Shown one piece after another: positions 5,349 through 26,938 of a DNA stretch of 32,000 nucleotides. Position numbers and translations under genes: made by a program. The notes under the pieces are model-generated. The model was not told where the DNA came from, made no database searches, and saw nothing but the letters and a program-made list of their open reading frames with translations. Positions within the stretch are counted from its first letter, which is position 1. Each line of letters starts with the position of its first letter. The stretch comes from Nostoc punctiforme PCC 73102. GTDB taxonomy: Bacteria > Cyanobacteriota > Cyanobacteriia > Cyanobacteriales > Nostocaceae. The DNA lies in the NCBI RefSeq assembly GCF_000020025.1, contig NC_010628.1:4950001-4982000 (forward strand), read 5' to 3'.

Positions 5349-7106
5349 TTAATCGTACCTATTTACATACTCCATAACCCGATTCTTCCCTGTTCGCTTT
5401 GCTTCAAGCATTGCTTGATTTGCTCGATTCAAAAAATCCTTAACTGTAATTCCTGATTCTGATACAGCTATTCCAAAAGAGGCAGTGATCCCTTGAAGGA
5501 TCTGATCGCCATCCCTCAATTGCATTTGTTCAACATCTACTCTTAATTGTTCTGCTCGCTTCCTAAGCACTTCCAGCGTCATATTAGGCATGACAATCAC
5601 AAATTCTTCACCACCCCATCTGCAAGGAATATCAAAAGAGCGAATAGATTTTAATAGCAGCTTTGCTAATTCCTGAATAACAATATTGGCAGTCACATGC
5701 CCATAGCGCGAGTTGTAAGATTTGAAGTTATCGATATCCAGAAAAATAACACTAAGAGGTTCTCCCGATCGTTCCGCTTCAGCTAGCCTTTGTTCAGTTA
5801 TAGTTTCCATATAGCTTTGATTGAATAGTTGGGTCATCCCATCCCGCAAATTCTCATGGGTAAGACGTTGTTTTATCGATAGATTATTTAGTGCAAAGCC
5901 TAAAGTTCTAGCAATAATCTCACTAATTTGTCGATCTTCTGGACTGATATTTTCAAGGGCATAAATGTGTAGAATTCCAACTACTTCGCCTTGTCCAAAC
6001 AATGGAACACACAAATGTGTACCGCTAACAGGCTGGATTAAATGACCGCATACCAGTCCTGATTTACCAGAAGAGAAAAGGTTGAATTTACCTCTCCGCA
6101 ATGCCCAACATTCAGATTGTGAAAATATTTCTTTACTGGTTCTGATTCTTTCATCTCCCCAAATACTATTCATCTGAACATAATTTTTAGAATTAGCAAT
6201 TATACAGATACAACCACTCATATCAGGAAACAGCTTGGAAAAGGTTAAAGCGACTGCTTGATACATCTCATCTTCAGACTCGCAGCAATAAAGCATATCT
6301 GCCATATCTGAGAGATATATAAGTTCCCGTTTTTTGGCTTCTAATTTCAGTGTTTTTTCTTCTAGTTGCCGATTTAGATCGGTGAGCGATCGCTGTGCTT
6401 CTATAGATTCTGTAATATCGATACTGATCCCACCGATGCGGCGATCGCCCGTTGCGCCATCGCTAAACGGAAACTTAAATGATAGCCAGTAGCATGGCTG
6501 ATTATTGCCAGGCATTTTTATCTCTTCAATCAGCTTTAAGGGGCGTAGAGTCTTCAAAACAACTCGATCGTTTTCCATTACCCGTCGCCCCTCTTCGGGA
6601 TCTGGTAAGAATTCACTATCCGTTTTCCCGAACCATTCTTGTGAATCTACTGAAAATCTAGACTGTATTTCCTGGTTATAGTAAAGCACTCTAGATTGCT
6701 CATCTTTGATATAGGCTCCAAACGGCCCTTGATCTAGAAATAGCCGTTGCATCTGCTGGCTGCGTTGAAGTTCGCGGGTATCTTCTTGATATTTGGCGAT
6801 CGCCTCTACAATTTGATAAGCCGTTGGCATTAAGTAGAGTAAGGCAGACAAAGAAACAAACGCCATTACATCAAGCACGACTAAGTGTAACAGCGACACT
6901 GCCAAATGTTTCTCAAAAATTGCCAAAAGGTGATGAAATCCGCAAAATAGTACGAATCCACCTGATAAGAAAAAGGCTAGCCAAAACTTAGGAGGGATAG
7001 TTGCCTTCGTTTTGGCAAAGAAAACCCCTATTATTATGGGGATACCAAAGTATGAAAATGCAGTAATGCTATGAGCAATTATGCAATTCCAGTAAATAGG
7101 TTCCAT
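5349..7106 (-). CDS. Membrane-anchored diguanylate cyclase: ethylene-binding-domain-like 3-TM module, then PAS, GAF and GGDEF
   Basis: The C-terminal GGDEF domain has an intact GGEEF and an I-site RSFD five residues upstream. A GAF-like block (ECWALRRG...CGH...CVPL..GEVVGIL) and a PAS-like block lie centrally. The N-terminal ~100 aa has three hydrophobic helices with YFGIP (aa 19-23) and CGFHH (aa 55-59). Confidence 0.88.
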   Translation of the reverse strand: MEPIYWNCIIAHSITAFSYFGIPIIIGVFFAKTKATIPPKFWLAFFLSGGFVLFCGFHHLLAIFEKHLAVSLLHLVVLDVMAFVSLSALLYLMPTAYQIVEAIAKYQEDTRELQRSQQMQRLFLDQGPFGAYIKDEQSRVLYYNQEIQSRFSVDSQEWFGKTDSEFLPDPEEGRRVMENDRVVLKTLRPLKLIEEIKMPGNNQPCYWLSFKFPFSDGATGDRRIGGISIDITESIEAQRSLTDLNRQLEEKTLKLEAKKRELIYLSDMADMLYCCESEDEMYQAVALTFSKLFPDMSGCICIIANSKNYVQMNSIWGDERIRTSKEIFSQSECWALRRGKFNLFSSGKSGLVCGHLIQPVSGTHLCVPLFGQGEVVGILHIYALENISPEDRQISEIIARTLGFALNNLSIKQRLTHENLRDGMTQLFNQSYMETITEQRLAEAERSGEPLSVIFLDIDNFKSYNSRYGHVTANIVIQELAKLLLKSIRSFDIPCRWGGEEFVIVMPNMTLEVLRKRAEQLRVDVEQMQLRDGDQILQGITASFGIAVSESGITVKDFLNRANQAMLEAKRTGKNRVMEYVNRYD

Positions 7107-9199: not shown

Positions 9200-10315
9200 T
9201 TATTTCCCAAACCCTTTACCGCGAGAGGTTGAAGGTAGACAAATACAGTTTTCGAGTTGACTAATTAAAGCCTCACGATCCAAATTTTGACCAATCAGCA
9301 CTAGTTGGTTTTTCAATTTACCTTGCCATTCATCATCATCCAAGGTAAAGCGTTTACCACAAAGGTGGAAAATATGACGCTTCGGACTTTCATCAAACCA
9401 CATAATCCCCTTTGCTCGGAAGATATTTGAGGGTAGCTGGTTATCTAAGAAATACTGAAACTTCCTAATAGAAAAAGGCTTGTCACTTTGGAAAGAGATG
9501 GAAGTAAAACCATCATTTTCTAAATGGTCAGAATGATGATGATCGTGGCGATCGTGGTCATGGTCGTGATGATCGTGACCGCATGTTGAGTGGTCATGAT
9601 CGTCATGATGATCGTGATGTTCATGAGCGTGATGATCGTGTTCATCCGCCACTGTGTCAAAATATTTATCCGACTCAAACAGACCAACACTCAAAATTAA
9701 AGGAAGTGGCACTTGCGATCGCGTCGCGCGGATAATTCTTGCTCCTTCCTTCACCTCGTTAATTTTTGTTTCTAACTCGTTCAAAGTGGCTTCATCAACC
9801 AAATCAGCCTTATTCAGCACAATTACATCACCATAGGCAATCTGGCTGTATGCTGCTTCCGAGTTAAATAAATCTAGGCTGTAATTAGCCGCGTCTACCA
9901 CGGTAATAATCGAATCCAAGCGGGTTAAATCCCGCAATTCTGTGCCCAGAAATGTTAGAGCTACTGGTAGCGGGTCTGCTAATCCAGTTGTTTCCACTAC
10001 TAGATAATCTAGATTTTCTTGGCGTTCTAAAACTTTGTAAACTGCATCTACTAAATCATTATTAATAGTGCAGCAAATACAACCATTATTTAGTTCCACC
10101 ATGTTCTCACCAGTGGAAACAATTAGCTCGTTGTCGATGCCAATTTCGCCAAATTCATTCACGAGAACAGCGGTTTTCAAACCCTGTTGGTTGTTGAGGA
10201 TATGATTGAGTAAAGTCGTCTTGCCACTACCGAGGAAACCCGTAATAATTGTTACTGGCATTCCTTGTTTGGGCGTATCCATTGCCGAAGATTCGGGTGT
10301 AACTGCTGATTGCAT
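9200..10315 (-). CDS. COG0523 (CobW/ZigA/YjiA-like) G3E GTPase metallochaperone with a His-rich insert
   Basis: Walker A GFLGSGKTT, the CxCC motif GCICCT, NKADL, and a His/Asp-rich stretch DEHDHHAHEHHDHHDDHDHSTCGHDHHDHDHDRHDHHHSDH ahead of the CobW C-terminal domain. Confidence 0.88.
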   Translation of the reverse strand: MQSAVTPESSAMDTPKQGMPVTIITGFLGSGKTTLLNHILNNQQGLKTAVLVNEFGEIGIDNELIVSTGENMVELNNGCICCTINNDLVDAVYKVLERQENLDYLVVETTGLADPLPVALTFLGTELRDLTRLDSIITVVDAANYSLDLFNSEAAYSQIAYGDVIVLNKADLVDEATLNELETKINEVKEGARIIRATRSQVPLPLILSVGLFESDKYFDTVADEHDHHAHEHHDHHDDHDHSTCGHDHHDHDHDRHDHHHSDHLENDGFTSISFQSDKPFSIRKFQYFLDNQLPSNIFRAKGIMWFDESPKRHIFHLCGKRFTLDDDEWQGKLKNQLVLIGQNLDREALISQLENCICLPSTSRGKGFGK

Positions 10316-17666: not shown

Positions 17667-17797
17667 AAATAAAAAATGCCCCAGAATATTTTCTAGGGCT
17701 TAACCAGGGTGCATCTACCATTACTCTCTACTAGGGAAAGAGGGTGAATCCGGAAAGATACTGAGAAAATATCAAAAAAGTTTTTTGAGGGATTGCC

Positions 17798-19162: not shown

Positions 19163-20257
19163 ATGTCTGCTACACCTCTTGTATCTCAGGTTGACTCACA
19201 CAACCCAGAAAAATCAAAATTAATCCCTCCCCTTCTCGGTGCTTCTGTTGCGGAGTTAAGTGCTTGGGTGCAGCAACAAGGACAACCTGCTTACAGAGGA
19301 AAGCAACTGCATGAATGGATCTACGATAAGGGAGTGCGATCGCTAGCTGATATTTCTGTCTTCTCTAAGCAATGGCGTGCGGAAGTAGCAGAAATCCCCA
19401 TTGGGCGCTCAACTTTACACTACCGCTCTGTGGCTCCCGATGGCACAGTCAAATATCTTTTACGATTAACAGATGGCCAAATTATTGAAACTGTTGGTAT
19501 CCCCACCTTCGCAGAAAGGGGAGAAGGCCCAAAAGCCCGTCTGACAGTTTGCGTCTCTACTCAGGTGGGTTGCCCAATGGCGTGTGATTTCTGTGCTACT
19601 GGTAAGGGAGGCTACAAGCGCAACCTAGCACGGCATGAAATTATCGATCAGGTGTTAACCGTGCAAGAAGATTTTCAGCAACGGGTTAGCAATGTCGTGT
19701 TCATGGGACTAGGTGAACCGTTGTTGAATACTGAGAATGTCCTCGCAGCGCTGAAATCTCTAAATCAAGATATTGGTATCGGACAGCGATCGCTTACAGT
19801 TTCTACAGTTGGTATTCGCGATCGCATTCGTCAGTTCGCGCAAAATAATTTGCAAATCACTCTGGCTGTCAGTCTCCATGCACCCAACCAAGCACTGCGA
19901 GAAAAACTCATCCCCAGCGCCCGCGCCTATCCTCTAGAAGAGTTGTTGGCTGAATGTCGAGAATATGTAGAAATCACTGGACGGCGCGTTACCTTTGAAT
20001 ATGTTCTCCTGGCTGGTGTCAACGATTTACCAGAACACGCATTAGAACTTTCAAAATGTATGCGAGGATTTCAAAGTCATGTGAATTTGATTCCTTACAA
20101 CCCCATCCAAGAAGTGGACTACAAACGCCCCAACCGCGATCGCATTGAAGCGTTTGTTAACGTCCTTAAGCAACAAAATACTGCTGTTAGTGTGCGTTAT
20201 TCGCGTGGTTTAGAAGCCGATGCTGCTTGCGGGCAATTGAGAGCAAGTAAAAATTAA
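19163..20257 (+). CDS. rlmN: 23S rRNA/tRNA adenine-C2 methyltransferase RlmN (radical SAM)
   Basis: Radical-SAM cluster [11 protein letters not shown], plus the blocks [11 protein letters not shown] and ADAACGQL typical of RlmN/Cfr. Confidence 0.9.
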
Positions 20258-20296
20258 ACTTGTTGCAGCCAATTCTATGAATGAATATTAAACCGC

Positions 20297-20339
20297 AGAT
20301 AAACACAGATATATCTAAGAAATTATCTCTGTTTATCTA
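20297..20339. repeat. 14-bp imperfect hairpin of the CAGATAAACACAGAT type downstream of rlmN
   Basis: agataaacacagat (20297-20310) pairs with atctctgtttatct (20326-20339) with one mismatch and a 15-nt loop. No T-run follows. Confidence 0.4.
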
Positions 20340-20825
20340 TGGTGTGAAATCGCCTGAAATGCTTTGTAGAGAAGTTTTCAGATATTGAGACTATGACGGG
20401 CGATAGAGAACAGAAAATGGTGTAGTTCAATTACTTGAAAAGCTTCGTAACTGAACCGTACCAGGTAGATGGATTACGGAAATCCGACAACCTATGTAAA
20501 AAATTTGAATGTATAATTTAATTAGTGATGAATATATGAAAAGCGAGAGTTTTATGCAAAATCAACATAATGCACTAGATATAATCTTGATTTAGCAAGC
20601 TATTCTCAATACACTAATATTTAGAAAAAGTTATGGACTGAAGAATATTAAGCACGTTGGCGTAGTCAGACGTAAGTATCGCGCAAGCCCATAACGGTAA
20701 ATAAAACATTAGCTTTAGTGAACTATTCCAAGCCCCTGTATTTATCTTGTATAAGGTAATTGTGTTGAGATTTTAAGGGTTTAGCGATCGTTCAACCCAA
20801 CCTATAACAATGAGGAAATAACTGT

Positions 20826-21332
20826 ATGTTAAATCGCTTGTCGCTATTTAAAGCATGGCTACTATTAATTGTGCTTGCAAAAGCTTTATCGATTAGTTTT
20901 CCTGCTAATGCCCAAATAATTCAGACGAATCCCCAGACGCAAGATTCATTTGAAGAAAGAATTAGACAACAACAAGATTCATTTCAAGAAAGAATCAGAC
21001 AACAACAAGAAGAGCAAAATCAGCAAACACAAGAACGAATGAGGGAAGCATGGCTACGGCAAAACCTTCAACAACCTCAACTACTACAACCACAACAGAC
21101 AATACAACAGCAACAATTTACACGGCAACGGCAAGAAATGCTCCGCCAGCAACAATTTAGACTACAACAAGACCAACTGAGAATACAACAACAAGAATTT
21201 TCTCGACAGCAACAACTGAGAATACAAGATCAACAACTCAGACAAGATCAACAAATTAGACAACAGGAAGAATTTAGATTACAAGAACAGAGACGACAGC
21301 AACAATTCAGACAACAGAATAAGAACTTGTAA
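20826..21332 (+). CDS. Secreted Gln/Arg-rich low-complexity repeat protein; function unknown
   Basis: Sec-type signal peptide MLNRLSLFKAWLLLIVLAKALSISFPANA-Q. The rest is Q/R/E repeats (DSFEERIRQQQ twice, then LRIQQQEFSRQQQLRIQDQQLRQDQQIRQQEEFRLQEQRRQQQFRQQ). A GAGGA Shine-Dalgarno sequence lies 9-13 nt upstream. Confidence 0.6.
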   Translation: MLNRLSLFKAWLLLIVLAKALSISFPANAQIIQTNPQTQDSFEERIRQQQDSFQERIRQQQEEQNQQTQERMREAWLRQNLQQPQLLQPQQTIQQQQFTRQRQEMLRQQQFRLQQDQLRIQQQEFSRQQQLRIQDQQLRQDQQIRQQEEFRLQEQRRQQQFRQQNKNL

Positions 21333-21364
21333 AGCCTTCAGAATTTATCATAAGTGACTTTATT

Positions 21365-21407
21365 ATTAAAAATTAGAGAAAACATTCTCCAATTTTTAAT
21401 TTTTATT
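21365..21407. terminator. Bidirectional AT-rich terminator hairpin between convergent genes
   Basis: attaaaaattagaga (21365-21379) pairs with tctccaatttttaat (21386-21400) with one mismatch and a 6-nt loop. A T-run follows on the + strand, with A/T runs on both sides. Confidence 0.5.
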
Positions 21408-21409
21408 AT

Positions 21410-21589
21410 CTAGCGTTGTGCATAAATTCCTGGTGCATAAGCCTCAATGACTTTGCCAGTACGAGTACAACTAATCATCAAGTAGTCACAACTAGAGCAT
21501 TGTGTTCGAGTTAATTGACTATCAGAAATATAATAACGTTCTGCTTGGCAGCCGCAATTTGGGCAGTAAATCTTTTGTACTGTCTGCAT
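21410..21589 (-). CDS. 59-aa zinc-ribbon miniprotein (CxxC...CxxC), missing from the ORF track
   Basis: My translation is MQTVQKIYCPNCGCQAERYYISDSQLTRTQCSSCDYLMISCTRTGKVIEAYAPGIYAQR*. GGGG lies 7 nt upstream of the ATG. The GC content is higher than in the surrounding spacer, and the gene ends at the shared terminator. Confidence 0.55.
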   Translation of the reverse strand: MQTVQKIYCPNCGCQAERYYISDSQLTRTQCSSCDYLMISCTRTGKVIEAYAPGIYAQR

Positions 21590-22041
21590 TTTAAAACCCC
21601 TGGTTGTAATTTATTTTTATTTGAGAAAACTGCCAGTTAAAGTAGCAATAATTTTGGTCTGACCCAACTTAACAAACGACCTTAATATTGGCTGATTATT
21701 TTAAACAAAATTTCAGGTTTGAAAATTTTCGATATCTTTGTATATTATCCTAGAATTTAAGTGATCTTACCCTCCTACTTTAGATACATAAATTATTTTT
21801 TAGTTAAATTCCGCTTAGAGATTTACTGATCCCTATGACGAATGCCTTGAGAGACCCCTATTTATAGTCATTTCAGACTAATACAAAAAAAGCCGTTCTT
21901 GTATTCAAAAATTAAAACCAATAAATTACTGTATCTTTAGTCACAAAATTTCTATCTTAAGATTTAGTTAATATTTACTAGCAAGATTGATGACGTTAAA
22001 TTCTAATGAAATAATTTAATTAAAATTAGCATACTTGTGAG

Positions 22042-22289: not shown

Positions 22290-24173
22290 TCAAGCAGGAT
22301 GAAAATAATCGTAAATTTCTTGAGCTAAACGCGGCCCAATTCCTGGAACCTCAGCGAGTTGTGGGGTTGTTGCTTGGCGAATATAATCAACTGAGCGAAA
22401 ATGCCCTAGTAACTGCTTTTGTCGATGATGTCCTAAGCCAGGAATTTCATCTAAACGCGATCGCTTCAATTTATCACTGCGTTGCTGACGATGGAAACTG
22501 ACTGCAAACCGATGTGCTTCATCTCGTAGCCGCCGCAACAATTGCACCCCTGGTTGTTCTGCATCAGTTGACGAGGGTTTAGATTCTCCCGGTAAAAAAA
22601 TCTCTTCTCGCTGCTTTGCTAAACTTACAACTCGCAAGTCTTCTAATAAATTCATCTCTTGCAAAACGGCGGTAACTGAAGATAACTGACCTTTACCTCC
22701 ATCAATCATGATTAAATCAGGCCAATCTGGATTACCCAAACGTGACAATTGTGGATCTTCCGCATACTTACGGAAGCGTCTCTGGATAACTTCAGCAAGA
22801 CTAGCAAAATCATCTGAATGTCCCGCCGTCACAGTGGGATTTTTAATTTTGTAGTGGCGATAATGCTGTTTAGCGGGTAAACCGTCGATAAACACAACTT
22901 GGGAAGCTACAGCATTTGACCCTTGAATGTGGGAAATGTCATAACCTTCGATGCGATGGGGTACATCTGGTAAATCGAGAATCGCTGCTAAATCTTGCAT
23001 TGCTTGGTGATTGCGATCGCCAAATTTCTGCATTCTTTGCAATTCATACTGAGCATTTCGCTCTACCATCTCAATTAATTCTGCCTTAGTTTGCCGCAAA
23101 GGAGTCAAAATCGTGACTTTTTTGCCTTTACGTTGAGTTAAGACATCCGCCAATATGTCGCTATCTGGTAAATCATGCTGTACCAGAATTTCTAAGGGTA
23201 TTTCTACTGAGTCAGCAGTTTGATAATGTTCCTCCAAAGCTCGTTGTAAAATAGCTCCTAGTTCTGCATGAGCATCAGCCACAAAAGCTAAACGCCCTAC
23301 CAATTGTCCAGCGCGAATCTGGAATAGTTGAATACAGGCGTGTTCTTCGTTAGCTGCCAGTGCGATCGCATCCCGTGAAACTGTATCATCTGGTAAAGAT
23401 ACCTTTTGGTCAGCAGTCAGCGACTTTAACCCAGAAATTTGATCGCGAATTCGCGCCGCTGACTCAAAATTCAAGTTTTCAGCAGCTGCGTTCATCTGTT
23501 GGGTCAAAATATCAATCAGTTCCTGAGTTCGACCTTGAAAAACCATCGCGATTTTTTGGACAATTTTGCGATATTCTTCTGGTGAAGTCAGCTTTTGACA
23601 CACACCCGGACAACGCCCTAAATCATAATTTAAGCACGGACGGTCTTTGAAAAGTGGTTGAGGTCGTTGTCGCTGAGGAAAGATGCGCTTGCAGATACGG
23701 ACAATCTCTCGCAATAAACCAGCATCAGTATAAGGCCCATAAAATTTATCTTTTTCTTTGCCCAATTGACGTTTACGGGTAATAAAAATTCGCGGATAAT
23801 CTTCTGACCAAGTAATGCAAAGATAGGGATATTTTTTATCATCTTTGAGCAGCACATTGAAGTATGGCTGGTGCTGCTTAATCAAATTGGCTTCTAGCGC
23901 TAAAGCTTCGGCTTCAGTATCAGTGACGATGAATTCAATTTCTGTCACTAACTTAACCATCGTGGCAATGCGTTCAGTCTTGTTGTAGCCATCCCGGAAA
24001 TAGGAACGAACACGCGATCGCAATTTACGTGACTTACCTATATATATAATGCGATCGCTGTTGTCCCGCATGAAATAAACCCCCGGTTCCGGTGGAATTT
24101 CGGCTAGACGATTTTCCAGTCGTTCCGGCTCTTTAACCAGTGGTAGTATTTGAGTAGATATTGTCACAACCAA
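22290..24173 (-). CDS. uvrC: Excinuclease ABC subunit C
   Basis: GIY-YIG N-terminus (PGVYFMRD...IIYIGKS...LRSRVRSY), a UVR domain, an Endo V-like domain and a C-terminal (HhH)2 (IPGLG...[12 protein letters not shown]). The start is non-ATG: TTG at 24171-24173 or GTG at 24165-24167. Confidence 0.92.
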
Positions 24174-24797
24174 AATTAGGTAATCTTTCTCTATTTTAAG
24201 AAAAATTCTTTTTTCGTGCCGATTTCATAGAGTAATTATCAATTAAATATAAAGTAAGAATACTTTTAGTCTATAGATATTTCTGTGGCTACCTACGAGT
24301 TCTCCAACGGAGTACCCGCAGATTGGTTTACAATCTGATATAAATCCCGCCACTATCTCAATTAACAAGACTTGGGGCAAAATCCCCTTGTAAAGAAAAA
24401 TCAGCCACTTCCGCCACAGTTTCCTAGATACCTTACTACACACATCACAATTTTGGAGCAGATAAGAGTTTATGGAGCTACTATCTTATTTGCCATCTGT
24501 TACTGTCAGAATCAAAACTTGGCTTTTTTAATCTCTAATTAATATTTAGAAACAGATAATATTTTATTATTTAAAACTTTATTTTATTGAGTTATTAACT
24601 TTATATGTTCTTGGCTAAAATTAATGAAGATCAAAATTTCTGATTATATAAATACAATGTAATTAATTATAAATAAACAGTAATTTTCATTATCAATTCA
24701 ACTTGTAATATTAAGCGATTTAACGGATTTAGGAAGTTATATTTACGAATATGATTATAAATATAGTTATGATAATAATTAAGGTAACAATTAAATT

Positions 24798-24977
24798 ATG
24801 AACCTACAAGACTTTGAAGCCCAGTACCGTGAAGCTATGGCTGAAACGCTCAATGAGCTGCAAACCGCAGTTTTGCTGTTAGCACAAGTACAAAATAAAA
24901 TTTTAACAATTGGCACTTCTGTACAACATATTAGTCAGCAAGTTGAAGAGTTCATTGAAGAGCAAAAAGCCGAATAA
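24798..24977 (+). CDS. 59-aa predicted all-helical acidic miniprotein, missing from the ORF track; function unknown
   Basis: My translation is MNLQDFEAQYREAMAETLNELQTAVLLLAQVQNKILTIGTSVQHISQQVEEFIEEQKAE*. This is a clear GC-richer block within about 20-25% GC spacer. There is no strong Shine-Dalgarno sequence. It ends 21 nt from the stop of the convergent receiver gene. Confidence 0.45.
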   Translation: MNLQDFEAQYREAMAETLNELQTAVLLLAQVQNKILTIGTSVQHISQQVEEFIEEQKAE

Positions 24978-24998
24978 AGGTATGCCAAGTAAAAAACT

Positions 24999-25421
24999 CT
25001 ATCTATGGCAACAAGTCAACTCTTCTTCAATTGTAAGTATAAGATCCTTGAGTTTTAGAGGTTTGACAAAATATCGGCGTGCGCCTAAACTCATAGCTAA
25101 TTCTTGATCTGCTTTAAAAGCAAAAGCGGAAACCACAATGATAGGTATTTTTGACAAATCAGGTTTTTGCTGGACTTGTTTTAAGAGCGAATAACCGTCA
25201 ATATCTGGTAACTTCAAATCTAATAACATTAAATCTGGTTTAAATTTATCTATAGTCGAGAAAAAAGTAGAGCCTTCAGATAAGCTTTGGACATCGTACC
25301 CACAGTAACTTAGATAGTCACTCAGTAACAACCTATTGAGATAATGGTCTTCAACTAGCAAAATTCGTCTAACTTTGTGTGACCGCAATGGCTGATCTGT
25401 ATTGAAGAATTGTGCTGTCAT
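24999..25421 (-). CDS. Stand-alone CheY-like response regulator receiver domain
   Basis: 140 aa. It has the acidic pair in ILLVEDH, the phospho-acceptor context DLMLLDLKLPDIDG, then IIVVSA and the conserved Lys in YFVKPLK. There is no output domain and no kinase in the window. Confidence 0.85.
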   Translation of the reverse strand: MTAQFFNTDQPLRSHKVRRILLVEDHYLNRLLLSDYLSYCGYDVQSLSEGSTFFSTIDKFKPDLMLLDLKLPDIDGYSLLKQVQQKPDLSKIPIIVVSAFAFKADQELAMSLGARRYFVKPLKLKDLILTIEEELTCCHR

Positions 25422-25940
25422 TGCTACCTATTATCTGATTATCTTAAGTAAAAACCAACAATTATTACCATAAACTAAAATGATAGTACATTTAAATTGT
25501 AAGATTAATAGAAAATTGACTTATGTAATTTAGCCAAAAATATTAATAAATTAAATCTAGCTGTACTCCAATACTTAATAATAGTACGATTAAATATAAT
25601 ATTAATCAATTATTAAGCTTTTCTTTACGAGTTTTTTACAATTAATAGTATTAAATAAAAGACTGGTTTTAAAAGTCAACCTAGCAATTTTTATAAGTGA
25701 AATTACTTAAGCAACACTAGAAGCAATAATAGGCTACTTGCCAGTCATAGAATAGGTTTTATCTGGATTTGAAGTAAAATAATACAATTGTACAAAATTG
25801 CTGTTATAAATACGCTGGTAAGGATCTAAATATATAGATATAGGCTCTTACAAAGAATTCATTTTTTGGGAATATTATTAAATATACATAACTGAGAAAA
25901 TTAAATTATCTTCTCGCTGGAAAAAAGTATTCATAAAAAA

Positions 25941-25962
25941 GGGAGCTAACAGCTCCCTTTTT
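25941..25962. terminator. Rho-independent terminator of the PEP-CTERM gene; bidirectional geometry
   Basis: gggagct (25941-25947), loop aac, agctccc (25951-25957). An A6 run precedes and a T5 run follows, so a T-run follows the stem on both strands. Confidence 0.7.
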
Positions 25963-25990
25963 CATTTGTAGTTTTAAACTTGCAATCTTC

Positions 25991-26938
25991 TTAAATAGAT
26001 GCTTTTTTCAATTTGCGTTGTGTGGCAAAAACACCAGCCACACCCAATAGACCCAGCATAACTGATGGTTCTGGGACTGCTGCGGGAGGTATACCTTGGA
26101 TGGTAACTTCATAGTTACCACTGTGAGACTTGCCATCAGCACCCGGCCCCGAATTGTTGCTTAGTCCGCTTTGTGTAGCAGAAAAGCTGTAACGGAAATC
26201 AGTCTTGCCATTGTATGTAACTTTAACAACTTCACTAGCTTGAAATCCATCTTTAAGAAAATTACCAAAACTTCCTAACAGAGGCGCATAGTAATCTTTT
26301 AAATTGTAGTGACCCGCTAACCCAATTTTAATATCGCCAGTGGTGTCATTTTGATTAACGTAAGAAATATTAGGATCGCTAGAGCGTTGGAAACCACCAA
26401 TACCATAAAATGCGTTAAAGGCTTGCTGACGAATAAACGAGCTAGGAGTAAAACTTGGTAGATTTAGTGCTAATTTAATTGCAGATTCATTACTTGCGAG
26501 ACCAGCTGCATCATAAAATTGGTTAAACCAAGTATTTGCAAAGTTATTTACCCCATAGCTTGTACTCAATACTGATCCGGTACTAAACCAATCTGTTGCT
26601 GTCAGACTACTCAAGGTAATACTTTTGTCACCAATTTGTCCTGTCAAAGTGGTATTCTTGCTGAAATCAAAACCAGACTGCTCACTGCTGGCTCGTAACT
26701 CTACGTTTCCAGTGGGGTTTGCAGCATTGCCATCTAGGACTTTCTGGACGTTTGTCTGGGTATTTGGCACCAGTACAGTACTGTTACCTGACATATCATA
26801 TACTAAGTAATCACTGGCTGCTGTTCCACCAATAGTAGCGCCGGTGAGGGTTCCAGCTTGTGCTGGTACAGTAGCGATCGCGCCCACACCAATAGCCATT
26901 GAAGCGCCAATTACAAGTTTCTGAAAAGTCATCTTCAT
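25991..26938 (-). CDS. Secreted PEP-CTERM sorting-domain protein
   Basis: N-terminal signal peptide (MKMTFQKLVIGASMAIGVGAIATVPAQA). C-terminal VPEP, a hydrophobic helix and a basic tail (VPEPSVMLGLLGVAGVFATQRKLKK) form the PEP-CTERM/exosortase sorting signal. I prefer the ATG at 26936-26938 over the TTG at 26947. Confidence 0.8.
   Translation of the reverse strand: MKMTFQKLVIGASMAIGVGAIATVPAQAGTLTGATIGGTAASDYLVYDMSGNSTVLVPNTQTNVQKVLDGNAANPTGNVELRASSEQSGFDFSKNTTLTGQIGDKSITLSSLTATDWFSTGSVLSTSYGVNNFANTWFNQFYDAAGLASNESAIKLALNLPSFTPSSFIRQQAFNAFYGIGGFQRSSDPNISYVNQNDTTGDIKIGLAGHYNLKDYYAPLLGSFGNFLKDGFQASEVVKVTYNGKTDFRYSFSATQSGLSNNSGPGADGKSHSGNYEVTIQGIPPAAVPEPSVMLGLLGVAGVFATQRKLKKASI

Follow-up and report, generated by a model that had tools for sequence, protein, structure and literature searches.

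Does the cyanobacterium Nostoc punctiforme hold an enzyme in which an ethylene-receptor-type membrane domain controls the synthesis of cyclic di-guanosine monophosphate (c-di-GMP)? This question is raised by a gene on the reverse strand of a 32,000-nucleotide stretch of N. punctiforme PCC 73102 (NC_010628.1, positions 4,950,001 to 4,982,000), which is called the window here. According to the list of open reading frames, the gene (5349..7106) starts at the first possible ATG and encodes 585 amino acids (aa). An exact-sequence look-up showed the product to be identical to ACC82322.1 / WP_012410290.1 / UniProt B2J5G5 of N. punctiforme ATCC 29133, and the public annotation of B2J5G5 is just “diguanylate cyclase (with PAS/PAC sensor)”. 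A first-pass annotation, made from the letters of the window alone, had proposed a candidate ethylene-to-c-di-GMP sensor. We found the open reading frame and all of its landmarks (AFSYFGIP, IPPKFW, Cys55/His59, His12, RSFD and GGEEF) where that annotation had placed them, and the Nostoc protein is a real, conserved variant of a known sensor family. The proposed function is only partly supported: the homology, the fold and the Cu-ligand pair are kept, but the residues for affinity and signal (Asp25 and Lys91 in ETR1, an ethylene receptor from plants) are replaced, as is the guanine-reading Asp344 of the cyclase PleD. An ethylene input and a c-di-GMP output do not simply follow from homology. 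The gene and its membrane part are composed as follows, where counts out of 80 refer to the window's own sequence plus 79 orthologues from Nostoc:

5349..7106, reverse strand: whole gene, encoding a membrane-bound ETR1_N-PAS-GAF-GGDEF protein of 585 aa (open reading frame list, Pfam, exact-sequence look-up)
6807..7106, reverse strand: ETR1_N (ethylene-binding-domain family) module, aa 1-100, three transmembrane helices (Pfam, hhalign, AlphaFold2 (AF2), ratio of non-synonymous to synonymous substitution rates (dN/dS))
7071..7073, reverse strand: His12, at the ETR1 Asp25 position (alignments; His in 80/80)
6930..6944, reverse strand: Cys55-Gly-Phe-His58-His59, with Cys55 = ETR1 Cys65 and His59 = His69 (the Cu(I) ligand pair) and His58 = Thr68
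6870..6887, reverse strand: helix 3 segment His74...Leu78-Asp79 (MAFFT and hhalign register anchored on A82/S85 = ETR1 A95/S98)
6738..6806, reverse strand: cytoplasmic continuation of transmembrane helix 3 (signalling helix), aa 101-123 (AF2 helix 68-119)

The N-terminus had been read at first pass as homologous to the ethylene-binding domain (EBD), and profile searches bear this out. Pfam ETR1_N (PF25487) covered aa 5-100 over profile positions 3-95 of 97 (E 6e-9) and, at 36.5 bits, exceeded its gathering score of 27; a hhalign comparison of the His-type alignment with 57 canonical ETR1_N members gave a probability of 99.95% (E 2e-37). By BLASTP, the N-terminus of ETR1 showed 35% identity over 49 residues, with three gap positions in the helix 1-2 loop, which matches the loop extension of three residues described earlier. 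The ETR1 query itself reaches 116.6 bits with ETR1_N, and D25, C65, H69 and K91 carry the same numbers in it as in the literature (PMC10266040). The three predicted helices were recovered in an AF2 model of aa 1-120 built on a 119-sequence alignment (helices 3-33, 39-63 and 68-119; mean predicted local distance difference test (pLDDT) score 93.5), in which helix 3 continues unbroken to residue 119 and into the cytoplasmic linker. Neither search of the PDB matched an EBD structure: the fold search with the AF2 model returned nothing below E 0.9, and the sequence search gave chance matches alone (rhodopsin, NMDA receptor). Across 119 ETR1_N family members, Y19, I22, F51, C55 and H59 are invariant and P23 nearly so. 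The motif AFSYFGIP lies at aa 16-23 of the module, and IPPKFW is also present. Since the loop at residues 31-40 is positively charged, holding three Lys, the sequence fits a topology with the N-terminus outside and the C-terminus in the cytoplasm. Judged by its sequence, the module is a genuine, strongly diverged homologue of the EBD. The domain call as such is not new: Pfam already tags close relatives with PF25487.

A scan with one genome per species found 95 relatives of the gene. The best 80 of these all carry it at 80-96% identity and are nearly all labelled Nostoc, with full-length orthologues in 79 Nostoc loci and one partial. Three copies of 86-88% identity lie on contigs labelled as Acetobacteraceae or Chroococcales metagenome-assembled genomes (L042, CAZZZY010000213.1; L017; L033), and these labels are probably binning or classification errors of metagenome assemblies.

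The segment GGFVLFCGFHHL carries Cys55 (nucleotides 6942-6944) and His59 (nucleotides 6930-6932), whose columns are invariant in both family alignments. The first-pass annotation had singled out this pair as the copper ligands, and it proved conserved among the orthologues (Cys55 79/80, His59 80/80). His12, Leu78, Asp79 and Ser85 are likewise found in 80/80, His58 and His74 in 76/80 each, and the helix-1 motif residues Tyr19, Ile22 and Pro23 in 78/80, 80/80 and 77/80. At the ETR1 Ile62 position stands Val52 (Val 70/80, Ile 9/80), a conservative change; Cys8, the sole N-terminal Cys, is kept in 75/80, and His67 is variable (His 54/80, Tyr 19/80). MAFFT and hhalign agree that Leu78 takes the place of ETR1 Lys91; Asp79 is the next residue, and His74, a turn before, falls at ETR1 Met87. 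The idea that Asp79 is a one-residue alignment slip for Lys91 was rejected, because both alignments keep the A82/S85 anchor. Measured against the window gene, dN/dS was 0.20 for the membrane module, 0.18 for PAS, 0.12 for the linker, 0.34 for GAF and 0.13 for GGDEF. As the buried H12, C55, H59, D79 and S85 are fixed and the module's ratio is like that of the PAS domain, the membrane module appears to be more than an anchor. The sole orthologue with Cys55Ser, which also has His58Asp, comes from Nostocales cyanobacterium LEGE 12452 (L010); either its sequence is in error, or a single strain has naturally lost the metal site.

Compared with ETR1, the module shares the three transmembrane helices, Y32/I35/P36 (Y19/I22/P23), F61, C65, G66 and H69 (F51, C55, G56 and H59) and, on helix 3, A95/S98 (A82/S85), and in both proteins the cytoplasmic signalling part follows on helix 3. 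It differs in the changes Asp25 to His12, Lys91 to Leu78 (with Asp79 adjoining), Thr68 to His58, Met87 to His74 and Ile62 to Val52, in a helix 1-2 loop that is three residues longer and a helix 2-3 loop that is shorter, in lacking the N-terminal Cys4/Cys6 pair, in its ETR1_N score (36.5 against 116.6 bits), and in its output, which is GGDEF rather than histidine-kinase-like. Of seven residues required in ETR1, five are identical in the Nostoc module; the source for this set is reportedly Wang et al. 2006. The first-pass annotation had correctly placed a His at the Asp25 position but treated it as minor, although changes of Asp25 abolish or cut binding by ETR1, and it had missed the change of Lys91 to Leu78. 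His at this position is rare, since 93.55% of 1,221 EBDs carry Asp and 3.67% Asn (PMC10266040). The natural Asn25 variants are mostly cyanobacterial, and Azhar et al. 2023 proposed fast-kinetics sensing for the cyanobacterial ones (PMC10266040, PMC11971883); the Nostoc protein is like them in having a natural replacement of the helix-1 Asp, but it has His where they have Asn. The evolutionary coupling between Asp25 and Lys91 is strong, and the two have been proposed as a bridge that passes binding on to helix 3 (PMC10266040).

Among bacterial proteins, SynEtr1 (Synechocystis slr1212) and AzoEtr1 (Azospirillum brasilense) bind ethylene, keep all seven key residues and are tied to surface behaviour, namely biofilm, phototaxis and root colonisation (PMC6682694, PMC11819568). 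Going by the published descriptions, the Nostoc protein resembles these bacterial receptors in that an ETR1_N module at the N-terminus precedes PAS and/or GAF-type domains. The receptors differ in signalling through a histidine kinase to a response regulator, whereas the Nostoc product contains no kinase domain by Pfam and its gene has no response regulator adjoining it; moreover, AzoEtr1 keeps D35, C75, H79 and K98, whereas the Nostoc protein lacks the Asp25 and Lys91 equivalents.

Residues at ETR1 positions 25 and 91 were sampled in 188 ETR1_N family members, and the architectures of relatives were taken from an exhaustive search and Pfam scans. The pair was Asp/Lys in 141 members and Asp/Arg in 7, and the association of Asp25 with a basic partner at 91 was strong (Fisher p = 4e-13, uncorrected for relatedness). 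The only sampled members with His at position 25 were those of the Nostoc clade (4 entries) and P0006, P0008, P0009, P0010 and P0017, and none of these His25-type members had a basic residue at position 91. P0006, a 576-aa metagenomic protein, has the same ETR1_N-PAS-GAF-GGDEF architecture as the Nostoc protein, is 40% identical to it in the membrane module and keeps H12, C55, H58, H59, H67, H74, L78 and D79. Further ETR1_N-GGDEF fusions are the short metagenomic P0007 and P0008 and the ETR1_N-PAS-GAF-GGDEF protein P0010; P0007 has Asp at position 25 but Glu at the Lys91 position, and the pair is His/Asn in P0008 and His/Gln in P0010. Because P0006 retains the same His/Cys/Asp set at 40% identity, the comparison speaks for a His-rich site under selection, located in the membrane's outer half and including a helix-3 acid, that is, for a coherent variant and not for decay.

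Behind the membrane module, Pfam orders the 585-aa protein as ETR1_N (aa 5-100), PAS_4 (124-234), GAF_2 (276-406) and GGDEF (421-576), in agreement with the PAS-GAF-GGDEF succession noticed at first pass, and an NCBIfam scan matched the GGDEF part alone. The features of this part are:

6405..6737, reverse strand: PAS_4 domain, aa 124-234 (PF08448, E 1.3e-18)
6282..6404, reverse strand: heptad-like helical linker between PAS and GAF, aa 235-275 (sequence IEAQRSLTDLNRQLEEKTLKLEAKKRELIYL; dN/dS 0.12)
5889..6281, reverse strand: GAF_2 domain, aa 276-406 (PF13185, 31 bits against a gathering score of 28.6)
5379..5846, reverse strand: GGDEF domain, aa 421-576 (PF00990, E 1.4e-39)
5685-5687, reverse strand: Asn474 in place of PleD Asp344 (alignment to PleD 1w25; Asn in 80/80)
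5631-5642, reverse strand: I-site RSFD, aa 489-492 (same spacing as in PleD)
5601-5615, reverse strand: GGEEF, aa 498-502 (sequence)

For the linker between PAS and GAF we infer a coiled coil. In the GAF region, PF01590 reached 20.9 bits, below its cut-off of 22.4. As the first-pass annotation had stated, the cyanobacteriochrome pattern is missing: aa 276-406 contain no CH dipeptide and no DXCF, and VCGH is in place. A cyanobacteriochrome or phytochrome GAF was rejected on the absence of these motifs. Three GAF cysteines, Cys333, Cys353 and Cys366 (in the motifs ECWALRRG, VCGH and HLCVPL), are common to P0006 and P0010, a hint of a subfamily of GAF domains that is redox- or ligand-reactive.

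The GGDEF domain aligned to that of PleD with E 3.6e-25. From the list of functional PleD residues (PMC6629876), D327, K332, N335, E370 and K442 are kept (D457, K462 and N465 are among the equivalents), and R446 is Lys. The RxxD I-site reads R489-S-F-D492 and is followed, after five residues, by G498. The Nostoc domain is thus like the PleD/WspR-type cyclases in its GGEEF, its Mg and phosphate ligands and an RxxD I-site five residues upstream, whereas it differs from PleD in Asp344 to Asn474, in the preceding Gly, which is Ala, and in its input, a membrane ETR1_N module instead of receiver domains. The first-pass verdict of an apparently active GGDEF needs qualifying: it agrees with the GGEEF, the RxxD and the other PleD residues but not with the Asp344 position. 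This position reads the Watson-Crick face of guanine, and in Hypr GGDEFs it holds Ser348 as a signature difference; S348D drives specificity for GTP, and the fit of residue 348 with GGDEF or GGEEF governs activity (PMC6456294). Under the same rule, a Hypr label, implying formation of cyclic GMP-AMP (cGAMP), was rejected for the Nostoc protein, which has Asn474 with GGEEF as opposed to Ser/Thr with GGDEF. A literature search returned nothing on Asn at the PleD Asp344 position. Among the relatives, P0006, P0007 and P0008 differ from the Nostoc protein in keeping the canonical Asp344, and P0010 has Asn. As read from the sequence, the product is most likely c-di-GMP, though this is not assured, and Asn474/Ala473 could alter nucleotide specificity or reduce activity.

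The explanation that we favour, giving it about an even chance, is a Nostoc-wide, membrane-anchored and probably dimeric signalling enzyme with a diverged ETR1_N sensor, a variant metal site and a ligand-controlled GGDEF domain. The homology, the architecture, the conservation and the residue states are observed; we infer metal binding, the identity of the ligand, the direction of regulation and the product. A metal cofactor, most likely Cu(I), would be held by Cys55/His59 of helix 2, and His12, standing where ETR1 has Asp25, would complete the site, possibly with His58, His74 and Asp79; the canonical Asp25-Lys91 bridge would be absent. On one reading, the carboxylate-His-metal arrangement proposed for ETR1 might have been rebuilt from different helices. 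A small membrane-permeant ligand would bind the metal and shift helix 3; ethylene is the leading candidate, probably with an affinity and kinetics unlike those of ETR1. As a continuous signalling helix, helix 3 would pass the change on to PAS, the helical linker and GAF and so set the activity of the GGDEF cyclase, which has GGEEF and would be under product feedback at the RxxD I-site. The product would most likely be c-di-GMP, and the invariant Asn474 leaves the nucleotide specificity less certain.

Several observations weigh against this explanation. First, Asp25 and Lys91 are replaced by His12 and Leu78, each in 80/80. In ETR1, D25A showed no Cu(I) binding in vitro and D25N/E/Q a minimal residue, D25A/N/Q had no detectable ethylene binding in yeast, and K91M was left with about 6% of ethylene binding (PMC10266040); D25N nevertheless works in planta at a roughly 100-fold lower ethylene affinity (PMC10266040, PMC11971883). 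Second, the Nostoc module is the most divergent ETR1_N member examined, with 36.5 bits against 66-137 for the others (P0010 66, P0008 76, P0007 83, a Bacillus Asn-type kinase 89, canonical members including ETR1 117-137). Third, it lacks the N-terminal PHGxC...W motif. Fourth, its His-rich site could be one without a free metal position for an alkene. On the output side, Asn474 and Ala473 (for the Gly of the usual GHxxGD) are both found in 80/80. Finally, the genes around the sensor gene (Fpg, fibrillin, MraY, MoaB-like, Psb28, Dtd, COG0523 GTPase, CysRS and TldD/PmbA) are all housekeeping and show no functional link to it. The PHGxC...W motif is nearly invariant in canonical bacterial ETR1_N members (P0019-P0185), where it lies just before helix 1 and adds a His and a Cys; it is absent from plant ETR1 as well.

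The residues of the favoured metal site could also serve a metal or redox sensor, a possibility that we regard as rather unlikely. The outer-leaflet cluster of His12, Cys55, His58, His59, His67, His74 and Asp79 would then report metal availability, or the redox state of the metal or of Cys55, and not a gas. The module has four His more than ETR1, at the D25, T68 and M87 equivalents and in the loop, which are conserved in Nostoc (His67 less so) and all present in P0006; the published model of ETR1 puts Thr68 and Asp25 beside the copper and His69 (PMC10266040), and the conserved GAF cysteines could add redox sensitivity. Against such a sensor stand the variability of His67 (Tyr in 19 of 80), the lack of functionally linked metal-homeostasis genes, with a COG0523-type GTPase 2 kilobases (kb) off and the cation ATPase gene adjoining P0006 as weak hints, and the literature search, which found no precedent for an ETR1_N family member as a metal sensor.

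Whatever the input, the GGDEF domain may not be a plain diguanylate cyclase. Asn474 would either relax or alter the choice of nucleotide, say in favour of ATP, so that cGAMP or a c-di-AMP-type product results, or cripple catalysis and leave a domain that is mainly an I-site receptor. The invariance of Asn474 and of Ala473 speaks for this, as do the Asn of P0010 and the Hypr precedent at the same position, where S348D confers GTP specificity (PMC6456294). However, the other catalytic residues and the GGEEF are intact, Asn, as an isostere of Asp, could keep a hydrogen bond to guanine, and Hypr enzymes pair Ser/Thr with GGDEF, not Asn with GGEEF. On balance, we consider a departure from plain cyclase function doubtful.

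A canonical ethylene receptor, with ETR1-like high-affinity Cu(I)/ethylene binding by which ethylene directly switches c-di-GMP synthesis, seems distinctly improbable to us. ETR1_N membership is established, the domain is common to the proven bacterial ethylene receptors, the Cys55/His59 spacing, Y19, I22 and P23 are conserved with V52 standing for Ile62, and N. punctiforme lives with plants, which emit ethylene. Yet only five of the seven required residues are identical, with His for Asp25, and the coupled partner Lys91 is Leu; the validated receptors cited above keep all seven; all tested substitutions of Asp25 in ETR1 lost most of the Cu binding, and for D25A/N/Q no ethylene binding was detectable. 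Equally improbable is a domain rewired around a centre of His12, Cys55, His58, His59 and His74 with Asp79 as the acid. Its ligand would differ (an organosulfur compound, for instance, or a diatomic gas or an alkene other than ethylene), or it would bind ethylene fast and with low affinity, and Asn474 would lead to a product other than, or besides, c-di-GMP. The weakest alternative, a degenerate relic serving merely as membrane anchor and dimerisation device while signals enter via PAS and GAF, would agree with the lowest ETR1_N score among the members examined, the loss of Asp25, Lys91 and the N-terminal PHGxC motif, the Cys55Ser/His58Asp orthologue and the classical ligand-binding nature of PAS and GAF, but it is very unlikely given that the buried H12, H59, D79 and S85 are invariant and C55 is kept in 79/80, that dN/dS is 0.20, and that P0006 holds the same polar set at 40% identity, since a plain anchor would not keep intramembrane His, Cys and Asp.

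In bacteria, the histidine-kinase receptors SynEtr1 and AzoEtr1 are the only ones with a demonstrated perception of ethylene, and our literature search returned no demonstrated link from an ethylene-type domain to a cyclic dinucleotide. Searches combining the ethylene-binding domain with diguanylate cyclase, GGDEF or c-di-GMP found, in the literature collection searched, no paper characterising such a fusion, as the first-pass annotation had supposed; ethylene goes unmentioned in a survey of c-di-GMP proteins from cyanobacteria, and searches on ethylene signalling in Nostoc yielded acetylene-reduction assays alone. Reviews from the Binder laboratory are said to list GGDEF-type outputs among putative bacterial ethylene receptors. 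The Nostoc protein is present in at least 80 Nostoc genomes, many of them from lichens and plants. N. punctiforme ATCC 29133 is amenable to genetics and lives as a symbiont of plants and lichens, and c-di-GMP controls motility and biofilm in other cyanobacteria. Under the favoured explanation, the Nostoc enzyme may sense ethylene or a related small molecule, and its His12 / Leu78-Asp79 site is a natural experiment on the Asp25-Lys91 model of binding and signal transmission in ETR1. Ethylene binding by the module would show the Asp/Lys pair to be dispensable; a lack of binding would mean that sensing by the family extends beyond ethylene and that “ethylene receptor-like” annotations call for caution. 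Should the reading of a rewired site with an altered product hold, the protein would couple an input to an output in a new way, and in an organism open to genetic work.

In the surroundings of the gene, a promoter and terminator scan gave nothing above chance level. A CobW/COG0523-type GTPase, belonging to a putative metallochaperone family, is encoded at window positions 9200-10315 on the same (reverse) strand, about 2 kb upstream of the sensor gene; its proximity is probably coincidental, and it would be relevant if the membrane module needs metal loading. The window also holds, at positions 17670-17720 on the reverse strand, an Rfam match to NsiR1, the nitrogen-stress-induced small RNA of heterocystous cyanobacteria, the only copy at the threshold used (52.2 bits against a gathering score of 39). 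Two segments of the window have a low G+C content, 20001-22000 (0.347) and 24001-26000 (0.307), compared with about 0.42-0.45 elsewhere in the window.

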